From Candidatus Omnitrophota bacterium (lineage in GTDB: Bacteria > Omnitrophota > Gorgyraeia > Duberdicusellales > 4484-171): 64,000 nucleotides of DNA. The stretch is taken from contig JBAWWL010000006.1 in NCBI GenBank assembly GCA_037146775.1, forward strand, positions 15,120 through 79,119. Direction: 5' to 3'. Position 1 is the first letter of the stretch, and the number at the start of each line of letters is the position of its first letter. A program made the position numbers and the translations under genes. This document shows, piece by piece, positions 41,870-63,949 of the stretch. Below the pieces are notes generated by a model that searched no databases, was not told the origin of the DNA, and was given only the letters and a program-made list of their open reading frames with translations.

Positions 41870-43246
<1,377 letters not shown>

Positions 43247-43260: not shown

Positions 43261-44679
43261 TTATTGGCTGACAGTATCAAGCATTGCTTGTGCAGCTTTT
43301 TTCGCCATCCCCATGGCCTCAATAACCGTTCCTTCTCCTCCGACGATATCACCGCCGGCAAAAACACCCTTTACCGAAGTCTCCATGGTATCCTGGTTTA
43401 CTATCACATCCGCGTAAGAATCTGTTTTTAGCTGCGGCGTAACACTGGTAAGTATCTGATTTGCCTTCAATCCTATGGCGATAATTGCTTCATCGCATTC
43501 CAATTCGAAATCACTGCCTTTGATCTCGATTGGCCGTCTGCGACCAGACGCATCCGGTTCGCCCAACTCACATTGTAAACATTTTATATTGTGTACCAAA
43601 CCCTGTTCATCGCCAAGAAACGCCTCTGGTTTCACCAAAAGCCTAAACTTCACGCCTTCTTCTTTAGCATGCTCAATCTCAAGGCGGCGGGCCGGCATCT
43701 CTATTTCGGTACGCCGATACAAAATAGTAGTATCGGGCGCTATATCATTCATTTTTTGCAACCTCAACGCTACGCGCGCTGAATCCATGGCGGTATTACC
43801 TCCGCCGACGACAACAATATGTCTGCCGATGGTAACAGGAGTATGGGTTTTAGGAAACGCATACGCTGACATGAGGTTCACTCGGGTCAAAAACTCATTC
43901 GCGGAATACACATTACAAAAATTTTCGCCCGGGATACCCAGAAATGATGGTATACCCGCTCCCAAACCAAGAAAAATTCCGGTATAACCCTGAGTGAAAA
44001 GTTCCTCCAAGGTGATATTTTTACCGACAATAAAATTCGGGATAAAAGTCACCCCCATGGCTTTTAACGAATTGATTTCGGAATCCAAAATATCTCGCGG
44101 AAGACGGAACGGAGGTATACCGTAGCGTAATACCCCTCCTAATTTATGCAAGCTTTCGAACATGTCGACTTTTATGCCGGCCCTGGCCAGTTCTCCGGCA
44201 CAGCATAACCCTGCCGGCCCGGAACCCACCACCGCCACCTTCTTAACGTTGGACGTTGGACGTTGAACGTTGAACGTTGAATTTTGATTATGCATCCCAT
44301 AGTCGCCGACAAACCGCTCAAGAAAATGTATGTTGATCGCCTGGTCGGACGCGTAAGGAGAACCTTTTTTCGTGAGCACGCAGGCATTACGGCACTGATA
44401 TTCCGCCGGGCACACTCTTCCGCAGATAGAAGGAAAATTATTTTTCTCTCTGATGGTAAGATACGCCCCTTGATAATCTTTTTGCGTAATCTGATAAATG
44501 AACTTTTTGATATCGATTCCCACAGGACAACCGGAACTACAGGCCGGATTTTTGCACTGCAGACAACGCGATGCTTCGTGAAGCGTCTCTTCTTCGCTAT
44601 AGCCGGCAACAACCTCCTGGAAATTATTAACCCTGACAGCGGCAGCCACTTCTTTAATCTTAACCGGATCTTTTCTCAT
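43261..44679 (-). CDS. nfnB: GltD-like FAD/NAD(P) oxidoreductase (NfnB/SudA-type, glutamate synthase small-subunit family)
   Basis: N-terminal Fe-S cysteine cluster, VAVVGSGPAGLCCA and a second NAD(P)-binding fold; paired with a PyrK-like subunit. Confidence 0.8.
   Translation of the reverse strand: MRKDPVKIKEVAAAVRVNNFQEVVAGYSEEETLHEASRCLQCKNPACSSGCPVGIDIKKFIYQITQKDYQGAYLTIREKNNFPSICGRVCPAEYQCRNACVLTKKGSPYASDQAINIHFLERFVGDYGMHNQNSTFNVQRPTSNVKKVAVVGSGPAGLCCAGELARAGIKVDMFESLHKLGGVLRYGIPPFRLPRDILDSEINSLKAMGVTFIPNFIVGKNITLEELFTQGYTGIFLGLGAGIPSFLGIPGENFCNVYSANEFLTRVNLMSAYAFPKTHTPVTIGRHIVVVGGGNTAMDSARVALRLQKMNDIAPDTTILYRRTEIEMPARRLEIEHAKEEGVKFRLLVKPEAFLGDEQGLVHNIKCLQCELGEPDASGRRRPIEIKGSDFELECDEAIIAIGLKANQILTSVTPQLKTDSYADVIVNQDTMETSVKGVFAGGDIVGGEGTVIEAMGMAKKAAQAMLDTVSQ
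44245..44279. repeat. 7-bp tandem repeat (RACGTTG, 5 units) inside the nfnB linker region
   Basis: aacgttg gacgttg gacgttg aacgttg aacgttg; translated on the minus strand it gives STFNVQRPTSNV, between the Fe-S domain and the FAD-binding domain. Confidence 0.7.
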
Positions 44680-48281: not shown

Positions 48282-49121
48282 TTATTCAAGCCAGTATTTT
48301 GTAAAAAGATACCATTGCTGAGGATATTTTTTCAGATATTTTTCCAAAACTTTCGCGTACGCTTCAAGTACCATTTCTTCGCTGGTTAGTTTTTGTCCCT
48401 GGATATCGATAGGTGCTTCAAATATTAAGCGGTAAAATATTCTTTTTTCCCGCACAAGAAATGCCGGAACGATACAAGCACCCGTTTTAAGCGCAAAAAA
48501 AGCCGGCCCCTTAGGAAGCCTCACTCGATGGCCCATCATGGTTATTTCGAGCCCTCCGCCAAAGAAATCTCTATCGCCCAAAAACGCCACAACGGTAGGC
48601 TCGCGCAACAAAGAAACGCATTTCCTTACCGTCACGCCTGCGGGAATAATATGTATACCGACCATTTTGCGCTGACGATTAAAAAGTTCATTGATACGCT
48701 GATCTTTATGAGGAAGAGCAACCGCGTGTACCGTGTAACCCAAAAGGGACGTAATCGCACCGGCAAGCTCATAATTACCCAGATGTGCGGTCACCGTTAA
48801 TACACCCTTGTTTCCATCGAGCGGCTGGGGCAGATACTCCAGCCCGCTAACGGTTACATATTTTTCAATAAAACGTTTATCCAGCTTTTCATATCGGAAA
48901 AAATCAACTAGGTAATACGCGAAATTGATAAAAACCTCTCGAGCCACACGCTTCGCTTCTTTGGCATCAGGAATAATAGCCGACAGGTTATACATAAGAG
49001 CTTCCCGCTCTTTTCTGGAAAAATAAAATTTAAGCACCGCTATGCACTTTGCGATGCGGTAGCAGAACACACGCGGAAAAATGAGCGTGAGTCTTTTCGC
49101 TAAAACATAAAAATAATACAT
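48282..49121 (-). CDS. LpxL/HtrB-like lysophospholipid acyltransferase
   Basis: 279 aa of the LPLAT superfamily (TAHLGNYE). Confidence 0.6.
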   Translation of the reverse strand: MYYFYVLAKRLTLIFPRVFCYRIAKCIAVLKFYFSRKEREALMYNLSAIIPDAKEAKRVAREVFINFAYYLVDFFRYEKLDKRFIEKYVTVSGLEYLPQPLDGNKGVLTVTAHLGNYELAGAITSLLGYTVHAVALPHKDQRINELFNRQRKMVGIHIIPAGVTVRKCVSLLREPTVVAFLGDRDFFGGGLEITMMGHRVRLPKGPAFFALKTGACIVPAFLVREKRIFYRLIFEAPIDIQGQKLTSEEMVLEAYAKVLEKYLKKYPQQWYLFTKYWLE

Positions 49122-50236
49122 TATAACGCCAATCTGATGATAAGTTCAGCTATACGTAACGAAGAATTCGCAAGCGATATTCTTTTTGCCCGCTCTTTTA
49201 GGCCGAACATATTCTGCGCATCCTCCAAAAGCTTTTTCGCTTCTTCCCCCACTAAAGCGGGCTCGTCCGCTCTGATCACCGCCTGCTTGCTTAAAAGATA
49301 GTTTACATTCCTTTCCTCTTGGCCGGGTATAGGCTTGGTAATAATAATCGCTAGGCCCTTGGCAAGTGCTTCCGAAATAGTAATACCACCGCTTTTAGTG
49401 ACAATAACGTCGGCGACATCCATCAAACGATGTATAAAGTCAACATATTCGAAACAAAATATGGGTTTTTTGAAACGAGATTTATTATCAATGAACCATT
49501 CATATAACTTTTTGTTCTTGCCGCATACCACAATAGTTTGAAAATCACAACTTGAGTCGTCAAGAGTTTGCGCTATCTTCGCTATCGGGCCTATCCCCAA
49601 CCCTCCGCCCATGATCAGAACCGTACGCAATTGTTCGTTGAATCCGAATTCCCTGACTACCTGTTCTCTCGGTTGAGAGGTAAGAAACTTCACAGAAATA
49701 GGAATACCCAATATTTCTATTTTGTCTTCGTTCACCCCTTCACGTATTAATGCCTCTTTCGCCTCGCTACACGCAACAACGTATTTATCAACGGCAGGAT
49801 GCAACCAGAATCCGTGCGGATGGTAATCGGTAACTACGGCAACCAGCGGTATTTTGATACCAAAATGCTTTTTAAAATCAGCGACTAAGCCGCAGGGAAA
49901 TGCCTGAGTAGCCACAAAACAATCAGCGGGAAATTCTTGCAGTAAACGGGACAATGGTTCAAAAGTGCGTTCGTTAACAAACTTACGTAAGGGGTTCAAA
50001 TTTTTTATGATTGGTTTTCGATCATATATACTACCCCACAAATACGGTACATGTTTTATAACGGCGGTATACATGCCGTCCACGAACTTTTCGGTCCGTG
50101 GATAAAAATATCCAAACCCGTTTACGTTACGCAGCAAGAGGCTGGGATCACGCTCCAGGAGCGCTTCTTTGATATTACTCGCTGCCTTGCTGTGGCCGCC
50201 AAATTCAGAAATATAAAACAGTATAATCCTTTTCAC
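49121..50236 (-). CDS. MGDG-synthase/UgtP-like diacylglycerol glycosyltransferase (GT28)
   Basis: The N-terminal MGDG_synth-type domain reads ISEFGGHSKAAS; the C-terminus has a GT-B fold. Confidence 0.7.
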   Translation of the reverse strand: MKRIILFYISEFGGHSKAASNIKEALLERDPSLLLRNVNGFGYFYPRTEKFVDGMYTAVIKHVPYLWGSIYDRKPIIKNLNPLRKFVNERTFEPLSRLLQEFPADCFVATQAFPCGLVADFKKHFGIKIPLVAVVTDYHPHGFWLHPAVDKYVVACSEAKEALIREGVNEDKIEILGIPISVKFLTSQPREQVVREFGFNEQLRTVLIMGGGLGIGPIAKIAQTLDDSSCDFQTIVVCGKNKKLYEWFIDNKSRFKKPIFCFEYVDFIHRLMDVADVIVTKSGGITISEALAKGLAIIITKPIPGQEERNVNYLLSKQAVIRADEPALVGEEAKKLLEDAQNMFGLKERAKRISLANSSLRIAELIIRLAL

Positions 50237-50286: not shown

Positions 50287-51450
50287 TTACGTGCGAAACG
50301 GATAGGCTTTCAGAAATGCATCAACAGCGCAGGGCGCAAACTGCTTTCCTCTATTACGCACTATCTCGGCACGAGCTTGCTCTCGAGAAATACCCTTATG
50401 ATACGGCCTGTCGGTCACCATCGCGTCAAACGTATCGGCAAGGGCAATGATCGAAGCTATCAAGGGAATTTGACGCCCCTTAAGACGGAACGGATAGCCA
50501 TTACCATCATATTTTTCGTGATGATACTTGACCCCCAGTAATACCTCCTGAAACGCCTCGATATGCTCTAAAATAGCCGCACCCACAAGAGGGTGAGTTT
50601 TAACCAATTTCTTTTCTTTTTTGTTTAGCCGCACGTTTTTATGAAGAATGTGTTCCGGAATCCCGATCTTTCCTATATCATGCAAAAGCGCGGCTATGTT
50701 AAGATTCTCCACAAAACGTTCCCAGTTTTTGATAGGTTTGCTCTTGCGCAAAACATGCGCAATATGAAGCGCATATTTTGCCACTCGCTCGGTATGGCCA
50801 ATTGTATATTTATCTTTTGCCTCAATGCTTGAGGCAAGTGACGCGATCGTCTGCAGCAGAAGCCGTTTATTGGCGTCAATTTGGCGGTTAAGATCTTCAA
50901 TGAGCCAGGCATTTTTGAGCGCCATAACTATATCCGAAGCGAGCGTTGAAAGAAAGCTCAGCTCGGCGTCGTGAAATTTTTTTTTATTTGCCTTCTCTCC
51001 CAAAAACAAAACCCCAACCAAGTCATTGCGGAAAAAACCGGGAATACACGCGTGAGCCTGATACGAAAAAAGTGCGTCTTTGACTTCCTCTAAAAATTTC
51101 TTCATTGGGGCATTTTCCCCGATCCCAAAAGACTCACATGCGCCGCTGACCCCATCGGCAGTAATTATTTCTCCGGGGAAATAAATACTTTTATCGGTAA
51201 AACACCTGATAAGAGGATTGTCTTTTCGTATTTTCGCAAAACCAGCCGGTATTTTAAACCCTCGGCTGCCGCGGGAAACCTGCAGCACATATTCATCCCT
51301 TTTTTTATCATAAATAAACATGCCTGCATGGCTCAATCCGACAGCACGGACAATCGTGCGTAAAATCATTTTTATCAACGTATTCGCCCGATGAATCATA
51401 ATAGTCTGACGGGCAGCTTTTTCCAATGCTTTACGATAATCGAGCTTCAT
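50287..51450 (-). CDS. GAF-HD-GYP c-di-GMP phosphodiesterase
   Basis: N-terminal GAF domain; HDIGKIGIPEHILHK and HHEKYDGNGYP motifs. Confidence 0.8.
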   Translation of the reverse strand: MKLDYRKALEKAARQTIMIHRANTLIKMILRTIVRAVGLSHAGMFIYDKKRDEYVLQVSRGSRGFKIPAGFAKIRKDNPLIRCFTDKSIYFPGEIITADGVSGACESFGIGENAPMKKFLEEVKDALFSYQAHACIPGFFRNDLVGVLFLGEKANKKKFHDAELSFLSTLASDIVMALKNAWLIEDLNRQIDANKRLLLQTIASLASSIEAKDKYTIGHTERVAKYALHIAHVLRKSKPIKNWERFVENLNIAALLHDIGKIGIPEHILHKNVRLNKKEKKLVKTHPLVGAAILEHIEAFQEVLLGVKYHHEKYDGNGYPFRLKGRQIPLIASIIALADTFDAMVTDRPYHKGISREQARAEIVRNRGKQFAPCAVDAFLKAYPFRT

Positions 51451-51495: not shown

Positions 51496-51870
51496 TTAAG
51501 GGTTACCGATATACATTTCAACCTTCTGTCGTAGTTCATGCAAATCTAACGGTTTTGTAATATAATCCAACGCGCCGCATTTCTTCGCTTTCTGTTGACA
51601 TTTCTTGTCATCTTTACCGGTAATCATGATGACCTTCAGGGAGGCGTCTGCCGCCCTAAGTTCTTCAAGCACGGCAATACCATCTTTGTCGGGCATTTGG
51701 ATATCCAAAAAAACATAATCCGGTTTATGCTCGCGATATGCAGCAAGAGCCTCTTGGCCTTTATTTATCTTAATGACGTCGAAATTAAAACGCCTTAAGA
51801 AATGTTCTAAGAAATCAACAATTTCCTGTTCGTCGTCTACCACTAATGCTTTTTTTCTGGCATCATTCAT
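51496..51870 (-). CDS. Stand-alone response-regulator receiver (CheY-like)
   Basis: DD...D acidic pocket (VVDDEQE, FLDIQMPDKDG), T (MITGK) and K (ITKPLD). Confidence 0.8.
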   Translation of the reverse strand: MNDARKKALVVDDEQEIVDFLEHFLRRFNFDVIKINKGQEALAAYREHKPDYVFLDIQMPDKDGIAVLEELRAADASLKVIMITGKDDKKCQQKAKKCGALDYITKPLDLHELRQKVEMYIGNP

Positions 51871-51983: not shown

Positions 51984-53321
51984 CTAAATTAAAGAAAGAT
52001 ATTCCTTCCCTTCCAGGAAAGGGTTTAAGGAGCGCTCGATTTTATAGCCGGGCTTTTTCTCGCTTAAATTAAGTATTCCTTTTTTCTCTGAAGGGACTAG
52101 CACTTCTACGGTAGGAAAAAATATATCTTCCGCATTCTCTTCTCTGACTACGGCAATATAACCGTCCTCAAGAACCACGATAGTACCTCTCGGCCACACC
52201 CCCATTATCTTGAAAAATTTTTCCAAAAGAAAAGGATCAAACGCCCCGGCACTTTCCCGCATCATTAAATCATAAATCATCCGTGGCGGATAATCTCTCT
52301 TGTACGTTCTACGTTGCATCAGCGCATCATACACGTCACAGATCGAAACCAGCAAAGAAATAATATGAGGCTTTTGCTTAAAAGAAAGCTTCGGATACCC
52401 TTTCATATCGTAGCGTAAGTGATGTTCAAACGCCACGACCGCCGGCAACATTCCCAGCGTATCCACATATTGCAAGAGCATCTCGGCCCCCTGGATCGTG
52501 TGACTTTGTATAGTCAAAAATTCTTCGCTCGACAGTTTATCCGGCTTGGTAATAATACGCTTCGATATGTAAATCTTACCGATATCGTGGAATAATGCGG
52601 CAATGCCGACATCCAACATATCATCCTTTGAAAGCCCAAGCATCGCAGCAAAATTCATAGACAGAATCGAAACATTTAAAAGATGCGTAAACGTCGAAAC
52701 ATCATATTTTTTAATCCCTGCAAGTTTAGCAAACTCTTCATAATTACCCACGAGATTATCTACCACCATCATCATGGTAAACTTAAGCCCTACTCCATCC
52801 ACCTCTTTGTTGTCAAGCAGCACATCGACAAACTGAGAAGTCCGCTCTAACGAATTATCATAATAGTCTTGATAACCCGTCGGCTGCACCGCAACGGCTT
52901 CGGACGAAGAAAGCCCGAGTTTACTCACCAGAACATTTCGAATGCCCTGCACAGAAAAATATTCCTGCACATCTTTAGGAGCTTTATCGCGGGTTAACGC
53001 AAGATATTCCACAAATTTTGCTAATTCATCTCTGGACAGGCCACGGTGAAAAATAATTTTTTCTATTCCCCGCTCTTTGAATAAAGAAATAATTAATTTT
53101 GCTTTTTTGCTCAACTCAAAGAAAATTTCTTTTTCAAAAATAAGCTCATCCCCGACCACCCCTATCACCAGTTCTTCTTTTTCGTCTAAGAGTGCGACAA
53201 GACTGGCGTAATTTTTATCAAGAAATTCCATGAATTTAGGATGCGCGGTAGTATAAATCTTAGCTATCTGGAACAAAGACAACAAATCCTTTAAAAAACA
53301 CTCAATCCTTTCGCGCATCAA
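51984..53321 (-). CDS. HD-GYP phosphodiesterase with an N-terminal DUF3391-like domain
   Basis: HDIGKIYISKRIIT and HHLRYDMKGYP motifs; the N-terminal ~120 aa are paralogous to the N-terminus of the upstream 643-aa protein. Confidence 0.75.
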   Translation of the reverse strand: MMRERIECFLKDLLSLFQIAKIYTTAHPKFMEFLDKNYASLVALLDEKEELVIGVVGDELIFEKEIFFELSKKAKLIISLFKERGIEKIIFHRGLSRDELAKFVEYLALTRDKAPKDVQEYFSVQGIRNVLVSKLGLSSSEAVAVQPTGYQDYYDNSLERTSQFVDVLLDNKEVDGVGLKFTMMMVVDNLVGNYEEFAKLAGIKKYDVSTFTHLLNVSILSMNFAAMLGLSKDDMLDVGIAALFHDIGKIYISKRIITKPDKLSSEEFLTIQSHTIQGAEMLLQYVDTLGMLPAVVAFEHHLRYDMKGYPKLSFKQKPHIISLLVSICDVYDALMQRRTYKRDYPPRMIYDLMMRESAGAFDPFLLEKFFKIMGVWPRGTIVVLEDGYIAVVREENAEDIFFPTVEVLVPSEKKGILNLSEKKPGYKIERSLNPFLEGKEYLSLI

Positions 53322-55233
53322 GCTCCTCTATTGTCCGCTTAGCCAAAAAACGTAAGCGACGATTCCAAAAGAATCTTCGCTGAGCCAAACGTCTTAAGTA
53401 CTCCTTCGCCTCTCTTAACCCAACATCGCGGACAATCTTAACATTTTCCTCCAAAAACTTATTCCTAAACCACAACTGATCCGAAAAACTAAGCAGCAAC
53501 TCCGCCGCCTTTTGGCGTTGTCCCTGGTCTTTCATAAGAGCAATCACAGCCTGCTTTTTAATTATTACACCGGACTCCTCCAAAAGCGCATATAAGAAAT
53601 CTGCCTCCAGATAAGAAGCCTGCTCGAGTGCCCGTAATATTTCTAACTTCAGAAAACTGTCACACACATAAAAAATATCCTTTAAAAACTTAAAAGAATA
53701 TATATTATCCACTTTGCATACACTCTCGATAAGCTTTTTCATAAAAGCTATATCATCGACTTTTCTTTTGATACGCTGAAAAAGGGCATCAATTTCGTCA
53801 GGAAAAAATTTTAAAAATAACTCGATAATATAAGAGGTATGGGCACTGCCGCTAAATATCTTATCAATATACGTATCGACGCCAATAGTGCTTTTTTGCA
53901 TATAGCCGACAAAAAAGCCGGGATCAAAACCGATATCATCGCTCAACATCGTCTCTTCCGCAAAAGCGCTAATACGTGTTCCTAATTCCTCAAACCCCTG
54001 GAATTGGGCAACATTTTTCTTTTTTATGTCCTCTAAGGCCGTAGCCAATGTGGTAAGATAAGCAAAATCCTTGTCTTTAACGATAGCATCAAACTCTTTT
54101 ATAATACTATTCGCAACGCGCTGCAGTTGCTCTCCTCTTTTTTCTTGTGTAAGTACATTCAACTGCAGAAGCCGGTAATTTTTCGTAACCAGTTGGCGGT
54201 TGAATGAAATGGCGCCATCCTTAAATGACTCTTCCATAAGAGTGGAGAGGTAACGATGGTATAGCTCGGAAAAAAATGGATCGTCCACCTGAGAGAATAC
54301 TTCGACGACCCTTTTGATCATTGCCGGATTAGCGCGTAACTCGGCTTTTACCTTGTCGGTAAACGCAACAGTAAACGCTTGCCGATATTTCTGACCTAAC
54401 AATTTCGAAAAAAGCACTAAGTTAAGAGGGTCGAATCGTTCATTCGCTGCCATCTCACCCCACAATGTGTCAACAAATTCTTTTTCGGTGGCATATTGCA
54501 AAAATGATTTCAATTGCTCAGTCTTACCTGCATCGAGAGATGCGCGGTCTTGCAACACCGTTCGCAGTAACTTTTTGGTACACCGGTACAACCGCTCCCG
54601 ATCGTTTTCCTTAAGATAAGCAAATAGCTGCTCAACATTTTCTCGAACAGTAGCATCGTCAAAAATCTTTGTGCCAGAAGTGGTTATAAACTTCTCAAAA
54701 TGATCGGCGATATCGGTTATCGCGGGTGCGTTTTTCTTTCCAAGCGCTTCCCTCAAGAGATACCCCCACACATCTGTGCATTCCTCGATTCCTCCGGCCT
54801 GCAGCAACTCTGAATAATCGAGCTCCGTCAATCGGATATGCGTAATATTTTCTTTTCCCAGAATAAAAGACAGTCCTCCCCGTTTAAGAATTTCACTCGG
54901 CATAAGAGCAATACTATTTAAAAAAACTATCAGCTCCTCGACGGTAATGCCCTGGCGTATTTCGATAGTCTTTATTTTTCGGCGATGGAACGCATGTGCG
55001 AGATCTTTATAAAGCTGCTCTCCTTCCCAATATTTTTCAGCACAAAAAAGCGAAACGGGGGTGACGCCGACAGTTAAAGGGTCCGATATAGCCAGAAGAA
55101 CGTATATGCTCTCTTCCAGGCTTTCGACAGATTTGATAAAAGCGGGGTGCTCCTTAAAATAAATAGAAGTAGTATTGAAGGCTACGCGTAGCTTTTTGAA
55201 AAAATCTTCGTATAACGTTTCTCTTTCCATCAA
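53302..55233 (-). CDS. Large alpha-helical hypothetical protein occupying the ftsZ position of the dcw cluster
   Basis: 643 aa with no tubulin GGGTGSG signature. Its N-terminus is homologous to the HD-GYP N-domain. The start overlaps the ftsA stop (ATGA) and the end overlaps the HD-GYP gene. Confidence 0.5.
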   Translation of the reverse strand: MMERETLYEDFFKKLRVAFNTTSIYFKEHPAFIKSVESLEESIYVLLAISDPLTVGVTPVSLFCAEKYWEGEQLYKDLAHAFHRRKIKTIEIRQGITVEELIVFLNSIALMPSEILKRGGLSFILGKENITHIRLTELDYSELLQAGGIEECTDVWGYLLREALGKKNAPAITDIADHFEKFITTSGTKIFDDATVRENVEQLFAYLKENDRERLYRCTKKLLRTVLQDRASLDAGKTEQLKSFLQYATEKEFVDTLWGEMAANERFDPLNLVLFSKLLGQKYRQAFTVAFTDKVKAELRANPAMIKRVVEVFSQVDDPFFSELYHRYLSTLMEESFKDGAISFNRQLVTKNYRLLQLNVLTQEKRGEQLQRVANSIIKEFDAIVKDKDFAYLTTLATALEDIKKKNVAQFQGFEELGTRISAFAEETMLSDDIGFDPGFFVGYMQKSTIGVDTYIDKIFSGSAHTSYIIELFLKFFPDEIDALFQRIKRKVDDIAFMKKLIESVCKVDNIYSFKFLKDIFYVCDSFLKLEILRALEQASYLEADFLYALLEESGVIIKKQAVIALMKDQGQRQKAAELLLSFSDQLWFRNKFLEENVKIVRDVGLREAKEYLRRLAQRRFFWNRRLRFLAKRTIEELDARKD

Positions 55234-56378
55234 AAATATTCTTTATATATCCTGAGAAAACGATGGAAAAACGAATCTTGGCCGCCACGGATTCGCTCAA
55301 GATACCGGCATGCCGCGTAACAGGCGCAACCGTACGACAAAGACTCCCCCACGCCAGCGGCAGCAACAACTACGGATTGCGGTATAAAACTTTTCAAGAA
55401 ATCAGCAAAACCATCCTTTGCATTTAAACGCCCCGTAACAGTGAGGTTAAACTCCTGAGGTACATCTTTACGGATAGCTTCTATGATAACGTTTATTTCA
55501 TTCTTTATGTATTCCTTAACAAATGAATTGACGGTATTCGTACTCACGTTAAGATACGTATCTGCGTTTTTGATACTTACCTCTTTAAAATACGGCAACT
55601 CCCGGAATGATATATAGCGATCAAATACCTCTTGGGATAAAGACACAGGAATGAAATGTTTCTTTGCCAGCTCCTGCAAGATACTTTTTAAACCGAAAGC
55701 AAATTCCTGCACGCACAAAAGATTTCCTTCTACAAATATCGCGACATTACTTTTTTCGTAACCAATGTCAATAATACCGGCGGCGTTTGCCGAAATCAAT
55801 TGTGTGCCGTTTGCGGAAACCGAACTTGCGGCTGCAAAAATCATACCACCCAGCTTTTTCTCTAGATGCGAGAATACCCCCTCTATATCCTTACGAAATG
55901 CATCTTTTACCCACACAAGAAGCGATTTCAACTTTATTTTTTTCGCAACCACGCCCACAGGCGGCCGCACATAGCTTTTCCCTTCAACTTCATAACGCAG
56001 CACAAAATGATGCATACAAAAATCATCCCAGTCTAGATACGCGTCTTCGACATATTTTTTCGTAAATAAAATATCGCCGGAGGTGATTTTTTTACGTTTC
56101 CCTAAAGGAACTATGGATTCAACCACGCGCCGCTGTTCCAGCCCCCATGGGACATTGAGATACACCGTATCGACAGAAATAGAGAGCGCTCGAGCCTCTT
56201 CCTCTATAGCCTTGACAATAGCCGCCGCGTTCGCTTGCAGAAAATGAGAAAAGTTGTTACCATCAAAAGGTATAGCCAATTGCGTTTCGCGCAGACAATA
56301 CGCTTCGGACTTCGCCAGCCTCACCAGCGAAAAAAAAGTTTTATCCGGCCTGACATCTATGCCGCAAACCATTTTCAT
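55230..56378 (-). CDS. ftsA: FtsA-like actin-fold cell-division ATPase
   Basis: Actin/Hsp70-fold motifs (VCGIDV..., GIIDIGYEKSNVAIF, NLTVTGRLNA). The C-terminal amphipathic segment reads FFHRFLRIYKEYF. Overlaps ftsQ by 4 nt. Confidence 0.6.
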   Translation of the reverse strand: MKMVCGIDVRPDKTFFSLVRLAKSEAYCLRETQLAIPFDGNNFSHFLQANAAAIVKAIEEEARALSISVDTVYLNVPWGLEQRRVVESIVPLGKRKKITSGDILFTKKYVEDAYLDWDDFCMHHFVLRYEVEGKSYVRPPVGVVAKKIKLKSLLVWVKDAFRKDIEGVFSHLEKKLGGMIFAAASSVSANGTQLISANAAGIIDIGYEKSNVAIFVEGNLLCVQEFAFGLKSILQELAKKHFIPVSLSQEVFDRYISFRELPYFKEVSIKNADTYLNVSTNTVNSFVKEYIKNEINVIIEAIRKDVPQEFNLTVTGRLNAKDGFADFLKSFIPQSVVVAAAGVGESLSYGCACYAACRYLERIRGGQDSFFHRFLRIYKEYF

Positions 56379-57127
56379 CGTCTGTATCCCACGTATGCTT
56401 TCCTATAACGCAAATCAATATACTCAACCAAAGAAAGATCGCCCCTAAGCTGCTCTTTCAAAAGGTTTTCCAGAATGTAGAGTTTACGGGAAAATTCCTC
56501 TTTGCCAATAATCACTTTTGTATCTCCCATCATAAAATAAAAACTCTGCGGCTGCGTCGTATTAATCGCCGTAACAGGAAACTTTCTAAACACTTTATGC
56601 TTATTCAATTCGTCACTTAAGATAACCGCCGCAGTTAACCGTGGGTCTTTGAGACGCATTCCTCTGCGCAGACGAAAATGATAATCAGCCACCTCCAAGA
56701 GAATGATATTTTGAAATGCGCGAGAAGAAGGATCGCTCGTGATCACCCCTTCTCTGTCAATCAAACAAAAACCTTGGCTGGTGAGCTGTGCAAACGGCTT
56801 TCTTGTTTTAATATCTATGCGCACCGCCGAAGGAAATTCCTTGGTAATATGTATTTCTTTATATTCGGGATGAATAGTACGTATATATGTATAAATGTTT
56901 TTCGCAGGTAAATGGAAAAGGGATACGCCTAATAACCGCGTCTTAATGCTTTCCTCTATCGTAATATTCGCGCGCACCTGCCGTACGATAAAGAAGTTGC
57001 TCGCAAGAATTCGTATCGCACAAAACAACGCCAGCACGATAAGAACCAGCGACGCCCCTATCCACGCAAAAAAAGGGTTAAACTGAGAACTAACTTTTCC
57101 TGACTTCTTGAAATTGTTTTTTTTCAT
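56375..57127 (-). CDS. ftsQ: Cell-division protein FtsQ/DivIB
   Basis: N-terminal TM anchor; POTRA-like region; located between ddl and ftsA. Confidence 0.65.
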   Translation of the reverse strand: MKKNNFKKSGKVSSQFNPFFAWIGASLVLIVLALFCAIRILASNFFIVRQVRANITIEESIKTRLLGVSLFHLPAKNIYTYIRTIHPEYKEIHITKEFPSAVRIDIKTRKPFAQLTSQGFCLIDREGVITSDPSSRAFQNIILLEVADYHFRLRRGMRLKDPRLTAAVILSDELNKHKVFRKFPVTAINTTQPQSFYFMMGDTKVIIGKEEFSRKLYILENLLKEQLRGDLSLVEYIDLRYRKAYVGYRR

Positions 57128-58043
57128 TGAGGGCTAACCAAACCATTCTTGCGACAAGTTCATCAAAGCTAATCCCACAGCACCGAGCCGAAAGCGGCAG
57201 GAGACTGTGAGTGGTCAACCCGGGTATAGAATTTACCTCTAAAACATATACGGCGTTGTCGGTCCGCAGACGTATATCCACCCGAGAAAAATGTTTACAC
57301 CCTAAAGCCTGATGTGCGCGTAAAGCTTCTTCCTGTATGCATTGATAAAGTACGTCGTCTAATTGTGCAGGGACAACAAATTCGGCTAAACCATCACTAT
57401 ATTTCGTTGTAAAATCAAAATATCCTTTTTTTGGAATAATTTCAACAACCGCCAAGGGTTTTTCTTCTAAAATACCGACCGTAAATTCCCGGCCTTCAAT
57501 ATATTCTTCTATGACTACCTTGTTTTGAAACGCACAGGCTTTGCCCAGGGCTGCAGGAAGAGATCCCGCGTCGGTTACAACGGAAACACCCAGGCTGGAG
57601 CCGGCAAAATACGGTTTCACCACCACCGGATAGGTGATACCATACGGTATACCCTTCCCTTCCTCGTAAACTAAAAAGCCGGGGGTGGGTACTTTGCATT
57701 TTATAAACATCTTTTTTGAAAATATTTTATTCATAGCCAAATAGCTCGCTGCCTGCCCCGAACCGGTGTAAGTAATCGAAACCTCGTCAAGAATTTTCTG
57801 AATGCGACCATCTTCCCCAAACTCACCATGAAGAGCGATAAAAGCTACGTCGATATTGCTTGCAGATAAAAGCTCTTTCACTTTTTCCGGTTCGCAGGTT
57901 ACGATATCGATAAAGACAGAGCGAACATTGTTTCTTCGTAACGCGTTATAAGCTTCCTGACCTGAAATAAGAGATATTTCTCGCTCTCCCGACACCCCTC
58001 CGGCTAAAACACCCACCGTAAGACTATCTGGAATTAATCCCAT
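57090..58043 (-). CDS. ddl: D-alanine--D-alanine ligase
   Basis: 317 aa with ATP-grasp architecture; VGVLAGGVSGEREISLISG N-terminus. Confidence 0.85.
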   Translation of the reverse strand: MGLIPDSLTVGVLAGGVSGEREISLISGQEAYNALRRNNVRSVFIDIVTCEPEKVKELLSASNIDVAFIALHGEFGEDGRIQKILDEVSITYTGSGQAASYLAMNKIFSKKMFIKCKVPTPGFLVYEEGKGIPYGITYPVVVKPYFAGSSLGVSVVTDAGSLPAALGKACAFQNKVVIEEYIEGREFTVGILEEKPLAVVEIIPKKGYFDFTTKYSDGLAEFVVPAQLDDVLYQCIQEEALRAHQALGCKHFSRVDIRLRTDNAVYVLEVNSIPGLTTHSLLPLSARCCGISFDELVARMVWLALNEKKQFQEVRKS

Positions 58044-58921
58044 CGTTGAATTTCCTCCTCTAACATAACGCCAAATTTATGATATACCGCATCCTTGATA
58101 TGGCCTATAAGATAATTTACATCGTCGCATGAAGCATTTTTAAGATTGATAATAAAATTTGCATGCCTCATCGAAATCTGAGCGTCGTTTTTCTTCAAAC
58201 CCTTCAAGCCGCAGGCATCAATAAGAAAACCGGCTGCCGCGCTGGCTGTGTTTTTAAAAATACAGCCACAACTAGGATATTGATAATCCTGAGTCTTCAT
58301 GCGCTCTCTAATGTAATACCCCACAGACGCTTTTATATTTGCGGTACGCGGTAAAACAAACCATGCGCGTAATACTATTGATTCTTGCAACGAAGACTGC
58401 CGATACCCAAGTGTGATTTCTTCTTTTGGTATTTTTTTCACTGTACCATTTACATCCATAACCTCAATTTCTTTTAAGAAATGTGTTACGCCTCTGCCGA
58501 AAGCCGACGCATTCATCGCGATGAGGCCACCGACAGTCGCCGGGATAGCCGCCAAGTTATCAAAACCGGCAAGTTTATGTTGTATCGTATAGCGTATAAC
58601 TTTTGAAAGCATAGTACATGCGCCAACTTCCAAGGTAGTATCAACGGAAGTTATATAGTCGAAGCCTCCGCCCAGCTTTATCACTGCTTTCTTAATCGGC
58701 CCATCGCTGGCCAAAAGGTTTGAACCACCGCCCAATAAATAATACGCGCCTTGCAGCCGCTTAACTACTTTTTGTAACCCTTCCATATTATGCGCGATAA
58801 AGAAAAAAGGCACCTGACCGCCTATTTTTATGGTGGTAAGATGTTTTAAAACGCAATTATGCCTTAACTCTAGAGCGCTCGAACTCATTAACAATACCAT
58901 CCATAATAGTGTTGATATCAC
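58034..58921 (-). CDS. murB: UDP-N-acetylenolpyruvoylglucosamine reductase
   Basis: FAD-binding motifs (TIKIGG, LLGGGSNLL); start may be at 58888. Confidence 0.85.
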   Translation of the reverse strand: MISTLLWMVLLMSSSALELRHNCVLKHLTTIKIGGQVPFFFIAHNMEGLQKVVKRLQGAYYLLGGGSNLLASDGPIKKAVIKLGGGFDYITSVDTTLEVGACTMLSKVIRYTIQHKLAGFDNLAAIPATVGGLIAMNASAFGRGVTHFLKEIEVMDVNGTVKKIPKEEITLGYRQSSLQESIVLRAWFVLPRTANIKASVGYYIRERMKTQDYQYPSCGCIFKNTASAAAGFLIDACGLKGLKKNDAQISMRHANFIINLKNASCDDVNYLIGHIKDAVYHKFGVMLEEEIQRWD

Positions 58922-60236
58922 CCGCCCCTAAACCCATCACCAGATCCCCTGGTTCTAGCCGGGGAGGAATGATATCGACAAGTTCCTCTTTGGCCACATG
59001 CTGTATGTTACCTCTAAAATATTTTTTAATCTCCTCCAGGAGAAAATGCGCGTCTACGCCCGCGATTGGTTTCTCTGACGCCGCATAAATATCCGTCACG
59101 ATCAACTCATCAACAGCGCCAAAGCAACGCGCAAATTCTTTATAAAGCGCTTCAACACGAGAAAAACGATGCGGTTGAAAGATAACAAAAAGACGCTTCG
59201 GCCGCAAATACCGCGCTGCGTTAAGCACTGCGGCTATTTCGGTAGGATGGTGTGCATAATCATCAACAAAAATAACATCGTTTAGTTTCTTCTTAACCTG
59301 AAAACGCCTTTTCGTCCCCTTGAAACCCTTCAAAAGGTTTACTACTTTAGCTACGTCCTCGCCCATATACAAGAAAAAGGAAATAACCGCAAGTGTATTT
59401 AAAACATTGTGCGTACCTAAAAGCGGTATACTCACAGGGCATATATATATATGGTCCACAAAAAGATCAAAACAAGTAAAATTCCCGTCAAACGTAACAT
59501 TAGCGGCGCTTACTTTATTATGCGCCCCAAAACCATAAAGAGTTCCTCCTGCTTTCTGCACAATATCCATAACTGTCGGTTCGTCTCCGCAGCCGATAAC
59601 CATACCTTTTGTTTGGTACGCAAACTGCAAAAAGCTTTTCTGTAAATCCTCTATCGTACGATAATAATCAAGATGTTCATGGTCTATATTGGTAATGATC
59701 GACACCCACGGATTATAATATAAAAAACTTCCGTCGCTTTCGTCGGTTTCAATAACGAAATAATCCTGTCCCCACCACGCATGGCGTGCATAATTCAAAG
59801 GCAATCCTCCCACAAAAACAGTGGGCTCATACCCCAAAGAAGTCATTAAATAGCCGATTAAGGAAGTAGTGGTGGTCTTGCCGTGGCTGCCGCTTACAGC
59901 GATAGCTTTCTTATCCCAGGAAAGCAATCCTAAAAGTTTACCGCGGGGTAAAATCGTCACCCCTCTTCTTTGCGCTTCTTGAATTTCCGGGTTATCCTGT
60001 TTGATGGCCGAAGAATAACACACCAGGTCAACATCAGCGCTCATATGCTCGCTGCAATGTCCGATAAAAACCTCAATACCGTTTTCCCGAAGCAACTTAA
60101 TCGTATAGTTTTCGTGCACATCTGAACCGCTGACATTAAACCCCTTATCTTTTAAAAGAAGCGCCAGGCCGCCCACCCCGATACCGCCGATACCTACAAG
60201 ATAGATATGTTTTACTCCTGATAGAACTGCTTCCAT
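58857..60236 (-). CDS. murC: UDP-N-acetylmuramate--L-alanine ligase
   Basis: 459 aa; IYLVGIGGIGVGGLA; Mur ligase P-loop GSHGKTTTT. Confidence 0.9.
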   Translation of the reverse strand: MEAVLSGVKHIYLVGIGGIGVGGLALLLKDKGFNVSGSDVHENYTIKLLRENGIEVFIGHCSEHMSADVDLVCYSSAIKQDNPEIQEAQRRGVTILPRGKLLGLLSWDKKAIAVSGSHGKTTTTSLIGYLMTSLGYEPTVFVGGLPLNYARHAWWGQDYFVIETDESDGSFLYYNPWVSIITNIDHEHLDYYRTIEDLQKSFLQFAYQTKGMVIGCGDEPTVMDIVQKAGGTLYGFGAHNKVSAANVTFDGNFTCFDLFVDHIYICPVSIPLLGTHNVLNTLAVISFFLYMGEDVAKVVNLLKGFKGTKRRFQVKKKLNDVIFVDDYAHHPTEIAAVLNAARYLRPKRLFVIFQPHRFSRVEALYKEFARCFGAVDELIVTDIYAASEKPIAGVDAHFLLEEIKKYFRGNIQHVAKEELVDIIPPRLEPGDLVMGLGAGDINTIMDGIVNEFERSRVKA

Positions 60237-60997
60237 TGCGTCTCTAGCTCCTCCCTGCCGTTGATGGAACTGTAACTTTTTGATAAAGCCTCGTCAAAGC
60301 CACAGCCTTGACGTAAAAAATACAATACATTATAAAAGTTATCACCCGAACCTTTCTTGATAAGAAAATGTATAATGGAATATGACTGGAGATAAAAAAC
60401 ATCAACATATTCTTTAGGCTTACCGTCAAGTGTTGCGGGCCCCATCTGATACAATTCTGAAAACGGTATGTATTGATTGTGTTCAATGGTTGTTTTTAGG
60501 GTTGAAAGTTCTGCCTCATAGGAACTACCCCCGTGTTTAGCATCAACATACATCGCAACGCCTTCATCAAACCACAGCGGTAATTTTCCCTCACCAACAT
60601 ATTCGCGAAAAATGATGTGCACCAACTCATGGCGCAGCAGCGAAGAAAAGTTATCTTGATGGGGATACGTATAAATTGTTTTTTGCCGGTAGTCCACGCA
60701 GGCGCCCGACCATTCGGAACAAGGAAAGCTGGCAAGATAATCGTTTTTGTCTTTCGCTATAATAATTTTTGCCCGGTTATCCCACAACCACAAGGTATCC
60801 CGCACGAGGCGAAATTCCTGAGTGACGCTTTTATAAAAATCCTCAGCCATGTCTTTGACGGTATACACATAGCTTTCGTCTAATTCTCGAGGCGAAATGA
60901 TCACGAAATGGTCTGAACGTAATTCCTTTTGATCGCTAGCTTCTACCGGCATACTCACCACACACATACCCACGAGCATGAACACAAAATTCTTCAA
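60212..60997 (-). CDS. Secreted HExxH zinc-metallopeptidase-like protein (Peptidase_MA-like)
   Basis: Signal peptide; HELVHIIF...LWFDEGVAMY (HExxH plus a downstream Glu); paralogue of 62021-62815; overlaps the murG 3' end. Confidence 0.5.
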   Translation of the reverse strand: MKNFVFMLVGMCVVSMPVEASDQKELRSDHFVIISPRELDESYVYTVKDMAEDFYKSVTQEFRLVRDTLWLWDNRAKIIIAKDKNDYLASFPCSEWSGACVDYRQKTIYTYPHQDNFSSLLRHELVHIIFREYVGEGKLPLWFDEGVAMYVDAKHGGSSYEAELSTLKTTIEHNQYIPFSELYQMGPATLDGKPKEYVDVFYLQSYSIIHFLIKKGSGDNFYNVLYFLRQGCGFDEALSKSYSSINGREELETQWKQFYQE

Positions 60998-61997
60998 ATG
61001 GCACCCCCAGCCGTACGGTTCTTAACTTTGCCGCTATCTCACGTTGCAGATCGCCGTTAAAAAGAAGTTTCTTTACAGTATCACGAAATATATGAAACGA
61101 AAAATCATGCTGCATCATTACAAACGCTGCTCCCTGCCGTGTAAGATACTCAGCGTTCTGCCGCTGATGCCCTCCGGCTGCCGGATGCGGAATAAGCACC
61201 GACGGCAATGCATAATAACAAATTTCTGCTATGGTGGAAGCGCCCGATCTGGCAATCACCACGCTCGCGGCGCTATAGAGCAATTCCATCTCATAGTAAA
61301 AACTACGCACTAATGCCTTTTGTTCTATTGTATTATACATTTTCGAAATTTCAAAGTATTCTCTTTCGCCGGTCAAATGAATGATTTGATAGGAACCGTG
61401 AAGGTCTGAAACGAGTCGCATGAAAATGCTGTTCAAAAAAGAAGAACCCTGGCTTCCGCCAAAACAAAGAATTACCGGTATATCATCAAAACCCAACGCA
61501 CACAAAGCTTCCTTCCTGGAAATTTTCCTTATATTAGAACGCAAGGGTATACCGATGGTTTTTTCCTTAGGTTTTTGCCCTCCCTCCTCAAACCCTCGCC
61601 AGATGTTACGAACGAATAGCGACAAAATCCGGTTTGCCTTGCCAAAAGTAACGTTAGGCTCATATATCACTGTATTAAGTAAAAATAAGGAGCCGAACAA
61701 TATTAAGAAAAAACTGTCCCTACCTCCAAAACCAATGACCACCTGCGGCCTTAACCGCGCTATCAGATAAAGAGCCTCAACGGCACGATAAGGCAACTCC
61801 AGAAAAATATTTCTTGAACGAAAACTCTTGCCATACACCGCAAACGCCTCTTTGACTACATAGGCCTTAAGAGAATCTGAGGTTACAAAAAATGAGATAT
61901 GCATTGCTTGGGCGGGCGGCTGGCTAAGGCACTTCCCTAATGTCAGTGCAGGAAATATGTGCCCGCCGCTCCTATCACATGCCAGTAAAACTCTCAT
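60936..61997 (-). CDS. murG: Undecaprenyldiphospho-muramoylpentapeptide beta-N-acetylglucosaminyltransferase
   Basis: 353 aa with a GT28 fold; the N-terminus reads MRVLLACDRSGGHIFPAL. Confidence 0.85.
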   Translation of the reverse strand: MRVLLACDRSGGHIFPALTLGKCLSQPPAQAMHISFFVTSDSLKAYVVKEAFAVYGKSFRSRNIFLELPYRAVEALYLIARLRPQVVIGFGGRDSFFLILFGSLFLLNTVIYEPNVTFGKANRILSLFVRNIWRGFEEGGQKPKEKTIGIPLRSNIRKISRKEALCALGFDDIPVILCFGGSQGSSFLNSIFMRLVSDLHGSYQIIHLTGEREYFEISKMYNTIEQKALVRSFYYEMELLYSAASVVIARSGASTIAEICYYALPSVLIPHPAAGGHQRQNAEYLTRQGAAFVMMQHDFSFHIFRDTVKKLLFNGDLQREIAAKLRTVRLGVPFEEFCVHARGYVCGEYAGRS

Positions 61998-62020
61998 ATT
62001 TTATATACACCTCTGGAATG

Positions 62021-62815
62021 CTACAAAAGATAAAACCTTCGCCATGACTCTTCAAATTGAGCCATACCGTCTATCCCGTTAAAAGACTTTCTCAACGCAT
62101 CATCAAGGCTATTACCATCTTTAAGATAACTCAAAAATTCACTGAAATCTTCACGGCTGAAACGTTTTATCAAAAAATAGACCATGCAAAATGCCTGCGC
62201 ATAGAAAAGCCCAACATCGGTATTGTTACCAAGGGTATAAATGCCGTTGATATCGGAAAATTTCAGGTATCGGTTGCCCGGTATCAACTGCTTCATCAGC
62301 GAAACAGCGGATTGCTCATTGAGTGAATCACGATATTCGATGTACTGGGCCATTCCTTCGTCCAGCCATAACGGTAAACGGTTATAACCGACGTATTCAC
62401 GAAAAATAATATGGGTCAGCTCATGGGAGAGTATACGGGAGAAGTTTTCTTGCCCCGGAAACGTATACATTATCCTGTTATAGTAATCTACGCAAGCACC
62501 TGACCATTCTGGGCAGCCAAAAGCCCGCACGTAAGTCTCTTTGTCTTTCGCTATAACTATCTGCGCCCTATTGCTCCACGCCCACAATGCCGCCCTGGTA
62601 AGCCCAAACTCCTGAACAATTTTACGATAAAAATATTCTGCGTCGTCCTTGATTTTATAAACTATAGTTTCTGCTTGTGGCGCATAAAGTATTACAAAAT
62701 GATCGGAACGTAATTCTTTATACTCTTTTGTCTGCGCGTCTACCCTTAAAGATGCGGTAGCGCTCCAGAGAATCGCCACCGCCATAACTATCGCTTTCTT
62801 CATGCGCACCCCCAT
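62021..62815 (-). CDS. Secreted HExxH zinc-metallopeptidase-like protein (Peptidase_MA-like), paralogue
   Basis: Signal peptide; HELTHIIF...LWLDEGMAQYI; about 50% identical to 60212-60997. Confidence 0.5.
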   Translation of the reverse strand: MGVRMKKAIVMAVAILWSATASLRVDAQTKEYKELRSDHFVILYAPQAETIVYKIKDDAEYFYRKIVQEFGLTRAALWAWSNRAQIVIAKDKETYVRAFGCPEWSGACVDYYNRIMYTFPGQENFSRILSHELTHIIFREYVGYNRLPLWLDEGMAQYIEYRDSLNEQSAVSLMKQLIPGNRYLKFSDINGIYTLGNNTDVGLFYAQAFCMVYFLIKRFSREDFSEFLSYLKDGNSLDDALRKSFNGIDGMAQFEESWRRFYLL

Positions 62816-62824
62816 TATCCGACA

Positions 62825-63949
62825 CTATGTCAAATCTTCTTCACTTCGAGAGGCATTAAAAAACAGTCCAAGCAAAACATAGTGCACAATAAGATTACTG
62901 CCGCCATAGCTCACAAAAGGAAGCGGCAACCCTTTCGTAGGAAAAAGACCGCAGCTTACGCCCATATTAACAGCTATCTCTAAAAAGAAAATAAGTATCA
63001 CCCCTAAAAGAATACTCTGACGAAAATCATCCCGGCAGTTTTTAGCGATATCTATCATTCTGTGAAAAAGAACTAAAAAGACGGCTACGAGCCCAAGCGA
63101 ACCAAGCAAACCGAATTCCTCTGCGATAATGGAAAAAATAAAATCGGTGTGGGCGGCCGGAAGAAAAAACAGTTTCTGCCTCCCTTCTCCCAATCCTACA
63201 CCCCACAGCCCTCCCTGGCCATACGCAATTTGGGATTGGATTAACTGGAAACCCGCATCACGCGGGTCCGCAAAAGGATTAAGATAGCCGGTAATTCTTC
63301 GAAAACGATAGGGATAAAATGTGATAAGGAAAAAAGAAAGAATAGCTCCGAGAGCAATAACAAAAAGCAGGTGCCGGCCGCGCGCATGATGCATAAAAAG
63401 AAAAAGAAGCGTCCAGACGATCCAAAACATTGCAGTTCCCAGATCGGGCTGTAATACCACCGATACGCATATCAATCCCATAACGATACCTAGGGGGATC
63501 AAAGTTCTGGCTTTTCTGATCAGCATTTTCCTCTTTATGACATAATCAACGCAATACATTAAAAAGAAAATTTTTAGCAACTCGGAAGGTTGGAAATTGA
63601 ACCCGCCAAGAGTAAACCATCGCCGCGCACCGCCGGCTTTTTTACCGATTATCAAAAGTACGAGTAAAATAAAAATTGTCGCAAACAAAAATTCTTTCGC
63701 ATGCGCACGCAAAAAATCAAGATCACACAAAAGTGTCAGGAAGAATAGTACCAATCCCGCTATAAAGAAAATAAACTGCTTCTTAAAGAAAGAGGCAGGA
63801 TCGGATGTAGTTTTGTACGCATAAAGGCTGGAAGATTCGTACACCATAAGCGTACCGAAAAGCGTCAGGAACAATACCAGTAGAAAAATGAACCTGCGCT
63901 CCTTGCGCAAATCTTTCGGATGAGCAACGCTTACATATGAATCGTACAT
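62825..63949 (-). CDS. ftsW: SEDS-family peptidoglycan polymerase FtsW
   Basis: 374 aa, 10 TM, FtsW/RodA family; position upstream of murG. Confidence 0.85.
   Translation of the reverse strand: MYDSYVSVAHPKDLRKERRFIFLLVLFLTLFGTLMVYESSSLYAYKTTSDPASFFKKQFIFFIAGLVLFFLTLLCDLDFLRAHAKEFLFATIFILLVLLIIGKKAGGARRWFTLGGFNFQPSELLKIFFLMYCVDYVIKRKMLIRKARTLIPLGIVMGLICVSVVLQPDLGTAMFWIVWTLLFLFMHHARGRHLLFVIALGAILSFFLITFYPYRFRRITGYLNPFADPRDAGFQLIQSQIAYGQGGLWGVGLGEGRQKLFFLPAAHTDFIFSIIAEEFGLLGSLGLVAVFLVLFHRMIDIAKNCRDDFRQSILLGVILIFFLEIAVNMGVSCGLFPTKGLPLPFVSYGGSNLIVHYVLLGLFFNASRSEEDLT

Follow-up and report, generated by a model that had tools for sequence, protein, structure and literature searches.

The 64,000-nucleotide stretch of Candidatus Omnitrophota DNA considered here (the window: positions 15,120 to 79,119 of contig JBAWWL010000006.1, assembly GCA_037146775.1) carries a division and cell wall (dcw) gene cluster in which the canonical order is kept as far as an ftsA-like gene, with two peptidase genes added, and in which the terminal gene is not ftsZ. 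This terminal gene, referred to here as X, is followed by an overlapping gene for an HD-GYP protein, HD-GYP1. On balance, we lean towards the reading that the two products form an obligate, Omnitrophota-specific two-subunit phosphodiesterase module for cyclic diguanosine monophosphate (c-di-GMP), with HD-GYP1 as the catalytic subunit and X as its non-catalytic partner, because the genes are strictly adjacent with overlapping frames, the proteins carry a paralogous N-terminal domain, GGDEF genes lie beside the pair in some lineages and the enzyme is conserved at the level of a housekeeping protein. The pair occupies the usual position of ftsZ without being a functional counterpart of its product.

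Architecture and pairing of X and HD-GYP1

X is encoded at 53302-55233 on the minus strand, where every gene considered in the cluster is located, and comprises 643 amino acids (aa) from a TTG start at 55233 or 642 aa from an ATG start at 55230. None of the families in Pfam, NCBIfam or PADLOC fits it, and matches to DUF1456 and Phage_TAC_15 were set aside as spurious because no stretch passes the threshold alone and DUF1456 falls below its own cut-off. A word-indexed search with X retrieved eight relatives at 32-35% identity, and an exhaustive profile search retrieved 327 representatives at E ≤ 1e-30. The best 150 matches listed are single-architecture proteins of about 640 aa, either full-length or truncated; approximately 1,636 further and weaker matches lie beyond these, many of them presumably sharing the N-terminal domain only.

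The AlphaFold2 model of X (predicted local distance difference test, pLDDT, 82.6) consists of an alpha/beta domain from residue 1 to about 145 followed by a purely helical part. The alpha/beta domain (54799..55233, minus strand) is the best conserved part of the protein, with the motif Y-F-K-E-H-P, and the invariant residues cluster in it (Y25, E28, H29, H83, R85, K88 and L138-D139-Y140-S141). The remainder, approximately residues 146-643 (53305..54798, minus strand), is predicted to adopt the stacked helical-hairpin repeat fold of a HEAT/ARM-like alpha-solenoid. Structure searches with the model returned alpha-solenoid matches only, with the A subunit of protein phosphatase 2A (PP2A), importins, AP-2 and CAND1 among the best. 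In X itself there is no Tubulin or FtsZ_C match in Pfam, no tubulin signature, no GTPase or ATPase motif and, in the model, no Rossmann-like GTPase fold. As modelled, X is a non-catalytic scaffold with a docking solenoid and has no nucleoside triphosphatase or polymer-forming fold. An earlier note on this DNA had stated that the gene after ftsA is not ftsZ and has no tubulin signature, which Pfam, the motif scan and the alpha-solenoid fold bear out; by the same fold, seen in structure prediction and structural searching, X is not an analogue of the Z-ring.

HD-GYP1 (51984-53321, minus strand; 445 aa from a TTG or 444 aa from an ATG at 53318) is composed of an N-terminal X-like domain (52917-53321), a catalytic HD-GYP domain (about 52197-52709) and a C-terminal beta domain (about 51987-52196). 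It scores 49.7 bits against Pfam HD_5 (cut-off 27.2) and 49.9 bits against HD (cut-off 22), its fold was found to be that of an HD-GYP protein, and it aligns to the active enzyme PmGH at E 1.3e-31 with matching catalytic residues. The catalytic motifs FHDIGK, EHHLRYDMKGYP and CDVYDAL are intact, as is the metal-binding site, and all of 30 homologues share H244, D245, H299, H300, G307, Y308, P309, D328 and D331. The best 120 homologues are all full-length, with 49-59% identity, and every one with a name is from Omnitrophota or Omnitrophica. Across the related loci in which the pair is linked to the dcw cluster, median identity to the window is 64% for ftsW, 59% for ddl, 58% for murC and for a downstream gene resembling monogalactosyldiacylglycerol (MGDG) synthase, 50% for murG and HD-GYP1, 47% for murB, 40% for the ftsA-like gene, 35% for ftsQ and 32% for X, the least conserved gene of the block. 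From its sequence, HD-GYP1 looks like an active cyclic-dinucleotide phosphodiesterase that is conserved like MurB and MurG, and c-di-GMP would be its substrate. A role in a defence system was considered and rejected, as PADLOC gave mere generic HD similarity to Cas3 and Cas10.

The N-terminal domains of X and HD-GYP1 are homologous. BLASTP aligns them with 31% identity (E 3e-7), hhalign aligns residues 5-187 of X with residues 2-172 of HD-GYP1 over 172 columns (96.6%, E 5.9e-10), and the order of secondary-structure elements is alike in the two AlphaFold2 models. With the isolated N-domains and the C-terminal beta domain of HD-GYP1, Pfam gave nothing credible at E ≤ 10; when the N-domain was searched by structure, the match lists were taken up by the solenoid or the HD domain and showed no known sensor fold.

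Wherever the contig continues, HD-GYP1 is found directly 3' of X, in 42 loci (37 distinct sequences) of one set and 13 of another, and the two genes mostly overlap by 8-20 nucleotides (nt). The overlap in the window is 17-20 nt, as the earlier note had observed without giving its length. Look-ups that started from HD-GYP1 homologues led in two of two cases to an overlapping upstream gene of 644 aa without a Pfam match. A PAS-GGDEF cyclase gene lies immediately 5' of the pair in loci L001-L004, and a GGDEF gene adjoins it in L073. The pair appears to be restricted to the phylum, in that every homologue with an organism name is from Omnitrophota.

A mechanism can be proposed in which the paralogous N-domains would pair, or would sense the same ligand via the conserved Y..HP motif, and a pseudo-dimer would form with a docking surface in place of one 'catalytic' half. 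The docking surface of X could then position or regulate c-di-GMP hydrolysis; a HEAT-like solenoid of about 500 residues, as predicted here, would be a typical protein-docking platform.

Several points weigh against such a two-subunit module. A physical complex of X with HD-GYP1 is something that we infer, and co-transcription of the pair with the dcw genes is deduced from the overlaps. The model of X was built on an alignment of nine sequences and has a predicted template modelling score (pTM) of 0.43, so the domain arrangement in it is unreliable. With regard to the substrate, V-cGAP3 (5z7c) is also a significant match of HD-GYP1, and some HD-GYP proteins hydrolyse 3'3'-cyclic GMP-AMP (3'3'-cGAMP) and not c-di-GMP. 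HD-GYP1 also appears to lack an equivalent of the third-metal glutamate of PmGH, judging from inspection of the alignment between the two.

The window is rich in c-di-GMP genes, with a HAMP-HD-GYP, a GAF-HD-GYP, HD-GYP1 and an MshEN-PilZ receptor within 64 kb (21075-22490, 37825-38679, 50287-51450 and 51984-53321, all on the minus strand). With such a density, an HD-GYP gene is more likely to lie close to any given operon by chance.

The dcw cluster and its FtsA-like protein

Based on Pfam, the distal dcw block spans 57090..63949 on the minus strand and comprises ftsW (62825-63949), murG (60936-61997), murC (58857-60236), murB (58034-58921) and ddl (57090-58043), an order that is also kept in related loci. 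It is followed by a gene for an FtsQ-like protein of 250 aa (56375-57127; Pfam FtsQ_DivIB_C, E 1e-5, 26.8 bits against a cut-off of 21), which overlaps both ddl and the ftsA-like gene (55230-56378, 382 aa, similar to FtsA profiles). The contig continues upstream of the window with mraZ-rsmH-(119 aa)-ftsI-murE-murF-mraY-murD; these dcw genes beyond base 64000 were read from Pfam on CAZTHQ010000006.1 (GCA_964613555.1), which is identical over 18,771 bases. The canonical series used for comparison was mraZ-rsmH-ftsL-ftsI-murE-murF-mraY-murD-ftsW-murG-murC-murB-ddl-ftsQ-ftsA with ftsZ as its last gene. The NCBI locus tags of the same window proteins have the form WCI77_....

The earlier note had described ftsW-murG-murC-murB-ddl-ftsQ-ftsA as canonical, and the order does hold, although it is interrupted by two genes for secreted MA-clan peptidases. 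Both belong to Peptidase_MA_2 by Pfam, one lying between ftsW and murG (62021-62815) and the other between murG and murC (60212-60997). Their products are paralogous metallopeptidases with an HExxH motif and signal-peptide-like N-termini, and almost every related dcw locus of Omnitrophota has the copy between murG and murC as well. These proteins could be phylum-specific septal or cell-wall hydrolases.

The ftsA-like product is labelled 'hypothetical protein' by NCBI. Its family profile matches FtsA in the PDB (7q6d) at E 4.8e-9, with FtsA as the best and sole significant relative, and the gene position after ftsQ matches that of FtsA. However, the protein reaches TIGR01174 at E 5.6e-10 with 38.8 bits, far under the cut-off of 175.85, and Pfam SHS2_FTSA with 18.1 bits, below the cut-off of 25.4. 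The nucleotide motifs of the actin fold (phosphate-1 DxGT, phosphate-2 DxGGGT and adenosine GGxA) are replaced by GIDVRPDK, IDIGYEKS and TGRLN, and these columns are variable among 18 homologues; in the profile alignment, DIGGGT of Escherichia coli FtsA pairs with i-s-i-g-Y-d-k-s. The homologues do share the C-terminal amphipathic tail (...RFLRIYKEYF), in which Y381 and F382 are invariant, and we take this tail to be a membrane-targeting helix by analogy with ...WLRKEF of E. coli. The earlier assignment as ftsA thus stands as far as position, profile and tail are concerned, and is to be qualified by scores below the family cut-offs and by the degenerate nucleotide motifs. On these features the protein looks like an FtsA remnant that would be unable to bind nucleotide, kept in a phylum reported to lack FtsZ.

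The junction of the ftsA-like gene with X reads TTTTGATGG, or, in longer context from the end of the ftsA-like gene into X, ...TATTTTTGATGGAA. A start/stop overlap had been described here as ATGA at 55230-55233. The overlap is present, but the sequence is TGATG, in which the TGA of the ftsA-like gene and the ATG of X have one base in common, and the overlap amounts to 4 nt solely when X starts at TTG 55233. These start/stop overlaps are consistent with co-translation of the ftsA-like gene, X and HD-GYP1. In the lineage of the window, the dcw operon would thus end at its 3' side with the pair, coupled to it in translation, and X and HD-GYP1 are probably made at the same time as FtsQ, the FtsA-like protein and other late cell-wall and division proteins. 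A scan for promoters and terminators found promoter-like sites at background level and no informative site.

Downstream of HD-GYP1, and separated from it by a gap of 113 nt, lie a stand-alone receiver domain gene (REC; 51496-51870, 124 aa, Pfam Response_reg E 4e-30) and a GAF-HD-GYP gene (50287-51450, 387 aa, with the canonical HHEKYDGNGYP; Pfam HD_5 E 9e-34, GAF E 2.7e-5), both on the minus strand. These two genes share one distribution, being present in the closest relatives only (L021, L024, L041, L050, L054-57, L060 and L072), and are a separate lineage-specific insertion. Because of the preceding gap, their co-transcription is not implied, and neither the gap nor this narrow distribution supports counting them in a co-transcribed module, as the earlier note could be read. 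They are followed on the same strand by genes for an MGDG-synthase-like glycosyltransferase (49121-50236) and a lipid A-type acyltransferase (48282-49121), both identified by Pfam. In all long dcw-linked loci, these two genes come after HD-GYP1 or after REC and GAF-HD-GYP, and they are a conserved part of the syntenic block, which they continue downstream.

In the source genome, the searches for FtsZ covered about 72 kb. A regular-expression scan of all six frames of the window found zero occurrences of the tubulin signature [GAS]GGTG[STAG]G, and tblastn with E. coli FtsZ matched neither the window, where the best E was 2.9, nor related loci totalling about 1.1 Mb. In the literature, Pende et al. 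(2021; PMC8178401) state that Planctomycetes, Omnitrophica and Chlamydiae lack FtsZ. The supplementary table of that study, reading its columns as FtsZ, SepF and FtsA from the figure legend, gives four of five 'Omnitrophica' genomes without FtsZ, three of those with FtsA, and OLB16 as the sole 'Omnitrophica' genome with FtsZ, which adjoins its FtsA. OLB16 is again the sole FtsZ carrier in Rivas-Marin et al. (2016; PMC5147048), and is now placed under Candidatus Hinthialibacterota in the NCBI taxonomy. A 2025 paper counts Omnitrophota among the phyla with 'highly conserved' dcw genes, in a text without per-gene data, and two large Omnitrophota genome studies make no mention of FtsZ, dcw or c-di-GMP. 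Based on the published surveys and the searches made here, absence of FtsZ from Omnitrophota is plausible.

Distribution, gene context and competing explanations

A scan of GTDB species representatives found at least 38 loci, nearly all labelled Omnitrophota; as it used a four-sequence sub-alignment of X and two narrow peptide patterns, the 38 species are a lower bound. A metagenome scan with the FtsA-like family added 20 loci, and searches with this family recovered dcw-linked relatives only. Among the informative dcw loci, not all of which are independent, X lies directly 3' of the ftsA-like gene in 33 of 35, with gaps from -4/-1 to +94 nt and 28-35% identity of X. The ftsA-X-HD-GYP arrangement singled out in the earlier note is hence kept across many Omnitrophota, contrary to the lack of conservation that the note had listed as part of a possible refutation. 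L060 and L072 are the exceptions; both come from a single sub-lineage, whose FtsA-like protein has 390 aa and in which the pair does not follow the ftsA-like gene. There, a REC or IS110 transposase gene comes directly after it (L060, 9092-9307; L072, 11173-13107), and in L072 the IS110-family transposase gene is followed by REC-GAF-HD-GYP-MGDG.

In a neighbour-joining tree of X and HD-GYP1, the dcw-linked loci form a basal grade and the others a single nested clade, so that the linkage to dcw is old and possibly ancestral. This nested clade contains 28 loci, and about 40% of all loci are not linked to dcw. The upstream neighbour of the pair in the clade is often gdhA and elsewhere carB, nadE, glnA or a PAS-GGDEF gene, with gaps of 34-1480 nt, and 20 of the 28 loci have gdhA, glnA, gltB/D, carA/B, pyrG or nadE within 10 kb of the pair. 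Loci with glutamate- or glutamine-type neighbours include L006, L027, L030, L031, L035-L038, L040, L043, L073 and L074. The window itself has gltD (43261-44679), gdhA (41870-43228), glnA (39592-40926) and a GAF-ANTAR regulator gene (38832-39527), all on the minus strand and 7-12 kb downstream of the pair, and the other dcw-linked loci of sufficient length show the same nitrogen genes downstream. Gene context does not single out division, because the pair is linked to dcw in one group and to nitrogen genes in another, and both sets are its neighbours in the window.

Given its position, the pair could serve as a regulator at the division site, where the solenoid of X would dock on the divisome, for instance on the FtsA-like protein, and HD-GYP1 would clear c-di-GMP locally, so that the second messenger gates septal peptidoglycan synthesis in a phylum without FtsZ. 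The immediate succession of the ftsA-like gene and X, whose stop and start codons often overlap, and the age of the linkage speak for it, as do the published surveys that found no FtsZ in genuine Omnitrophota and the retention of the 1C insert and the C-terminal amphipathic tail in an FtsA-like protein without ATP motifs. Precedents for c-di-GMP enzymes at the division site are described in two reports (PMC11255338, PMC4992967). We nevertheless consider this role unlikely, since the pair stands away from dcw in the 28-locus clade with the conservation of HD-GYP1 unchanged (49%, against 50% in dcw-linked loci), since one sub-lineage has IS110 or REC and no X-HD-GYP1 after the ftsA-like gene, and since the whole block from dcw to the MGDG/Lpx genes and further downstream is syntenic, so the adjacency could be inherited. 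In a more far-reaching form, which is distinctly improbable, the nucleotide-blind FtsA remnant would recruit X, and X-bound HD-GYP1 would set up a c-di-GMP minimum in its vicinity and thereby license septal peptidoglycan synthesis, making the pair a core, phylum-defining divisome module in the ftsZ slot. Very improbable is the proposal that X replaces FtsZ structurally, as an organiser or cytoskeletal element of an FtsZ-independent divisome with HD-GYP1 as its regulator. X does take the usual place of ftsZ, in a phylum from which FtsZ is reported absent, and it is phylum-specific and of constant length; however, it has neither a GTPase or ATPase motif nor a tubulin signature, its fold is a generic alpha-solenoid and no known filament former, it is the least conserved member of the block, its best conserved part is the domain in common with a signalling enzyme, and some 40% of its loci have no dcw linkage. 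As such, the earlier suggestion of an FtsZ-independent or c-di-GMP-gated division component keeps the conserved position of the pair after the ftsA-like gene in its favour, and loses ground in that X is no Z-ring analogue and that a sister clade has the pair away from dcw.

The nitrogen genes invite a different explanation, namely that the pair tunes c-di-GMP according to nitrogen status, with a glutamine- or glutamate-type metabolite bound at the N-domain, and that adjacency to the ftsA-like gene is meaningless inherited synteny. The 20 of 28 non-dcw loci near nitrogen genes, where gdhA frequently precedes the pair immediately and in the same orientation, fit this idea, as does the series gltD-gdhA-x-glnA-GAF/ANTAR downstream of the pair in the window and in other long dcw-linked loci, and the invariant Tyr/His motif of the N-domains would suit a ligand-binding site. 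However, the operon link to nitrogen genes is weaker than the overlap with the ftsA-like gene, because the genes next to the pair differ between loci in kind and direction, at distances of 34-1480 nt; moreover, the N-domain gave no recognisable match to a known sensor fold, and the argument from a conserved core neighbourhood applies to nitrogen genes as well. We regard this explanation as unlikely.

Several contigs labelled Methanosarcinales, Candidatus Aminicenans, Eubacteriales or Planctomycetia carry synteny of the Omnitrophota type, that is, dcw with the peptidase insertion, the ftsA-like gene, X and HD-GYP1 (L013, JAIWAR010000001.1; L042, AWNV01000103.1; L012/L014/L039; and others). Mis-binning or mislabelling is the probable explanation for these contigs. 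The archaeal label is of interest in that certain Omnitrophota have been described as living on methanogens as epibionts.

Elsewhere in the window, a run of complex I or Mrp-antiporter-like subunit genes (25682-35018, minus strand) encodes three Proton_antipo_M proteins, an NADHdh and a Complex1_49kDa protein with a NiFe-hydrogenase-like N-terminus, and is adjoined by a P-type cation ATPase gene (35011-37617). Two open reading frames on the minus strand, one of 382 aa (17160-18308) and one of 181 aa (41195-41740), have no Pfam match at E ≤ 1e-5; the shorter is located between gdhA and glnA.

Relation to known systems

Division without FtsZ is an open question that is studied in Chlamydiota and Planctomycetota, and Omnitrophota are a hardly examined third case. 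The X/HD-GYP1 pair is a candidate link between second-messenger signalling and FtsZ-less division, although the link to division is circumstantial. Even if it is unrelated to division, the pair is a clear case of an HD-GYP protein with a dedicated partner bearing a paralogous domain, and the family of this partner holds more than 300 sequence clusters without annotation. It also supplies testable candidates for studies of interaction, localisation and enzymology in Omnitrophota cell biology. HD-GYP enzymes, alpha-solenoid scaffolds and FtsZ-less bacteria of the Planctomycetes-Verrucomicrobia-Chlamydiae (PVC) group are already known. The X family, the pairing through a paralogous domain with a dedicated HD-GYP, and the position of the pair, where a dcw cluster that is complete in other respects ends beside an FtsA devoid of its nucleotide-binding motifs, appear to be new.

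The closest known kin of HD-GYP1 are the HD-GYP structures PmGH (4mcw), Bd1817 (3tm8), PA4781 (4r8z) and DvhD (9rbz). In HD-GYP1, an alpha/beta domain without annotation takes the N-terminal place of REC, GAF or PAS, and a C-terminal beta domain is present as well; unlike these relatives, it is always encoded with a partner of about 640 aa that carries the paralogous domain. The combination of a predicted alpha-solenoid in X with a co-encoded metal-dependent phosphohydrolase is reminiscent of holoenzymes with a PP2A-type HEAT scaffold, a resemblance that would be one of functional analogy and not of homology.

Proteins that metabolise c-di-GMP are functionally tied to cytokinesis in reports on Myxococcus DmxA (PMC11255338) and E. 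coli YfiN (PMC4992967). Unlike these, HD-GYP1 is a phosphodiesterase by its motifs, and is encoded with a scaffold partner where dcw ends, in a phylum that reportedly has no FtsZ. DmxA and YfiN are diguanylate cyclases of FtsZ-bearing hosts with genes outside dcw. Like Chlamydiota and Planctomycetota, Omnitrophota are a PVC lineage with peptidoglycan genes and, according to the published surveys, no detectable FtsZ. In contrast to those phyla, in which FtsA is lost and dcw is fragmented, the bacterium considered here keeps the cluster from mraZ to ftsQ together with a degenerate FtsA.

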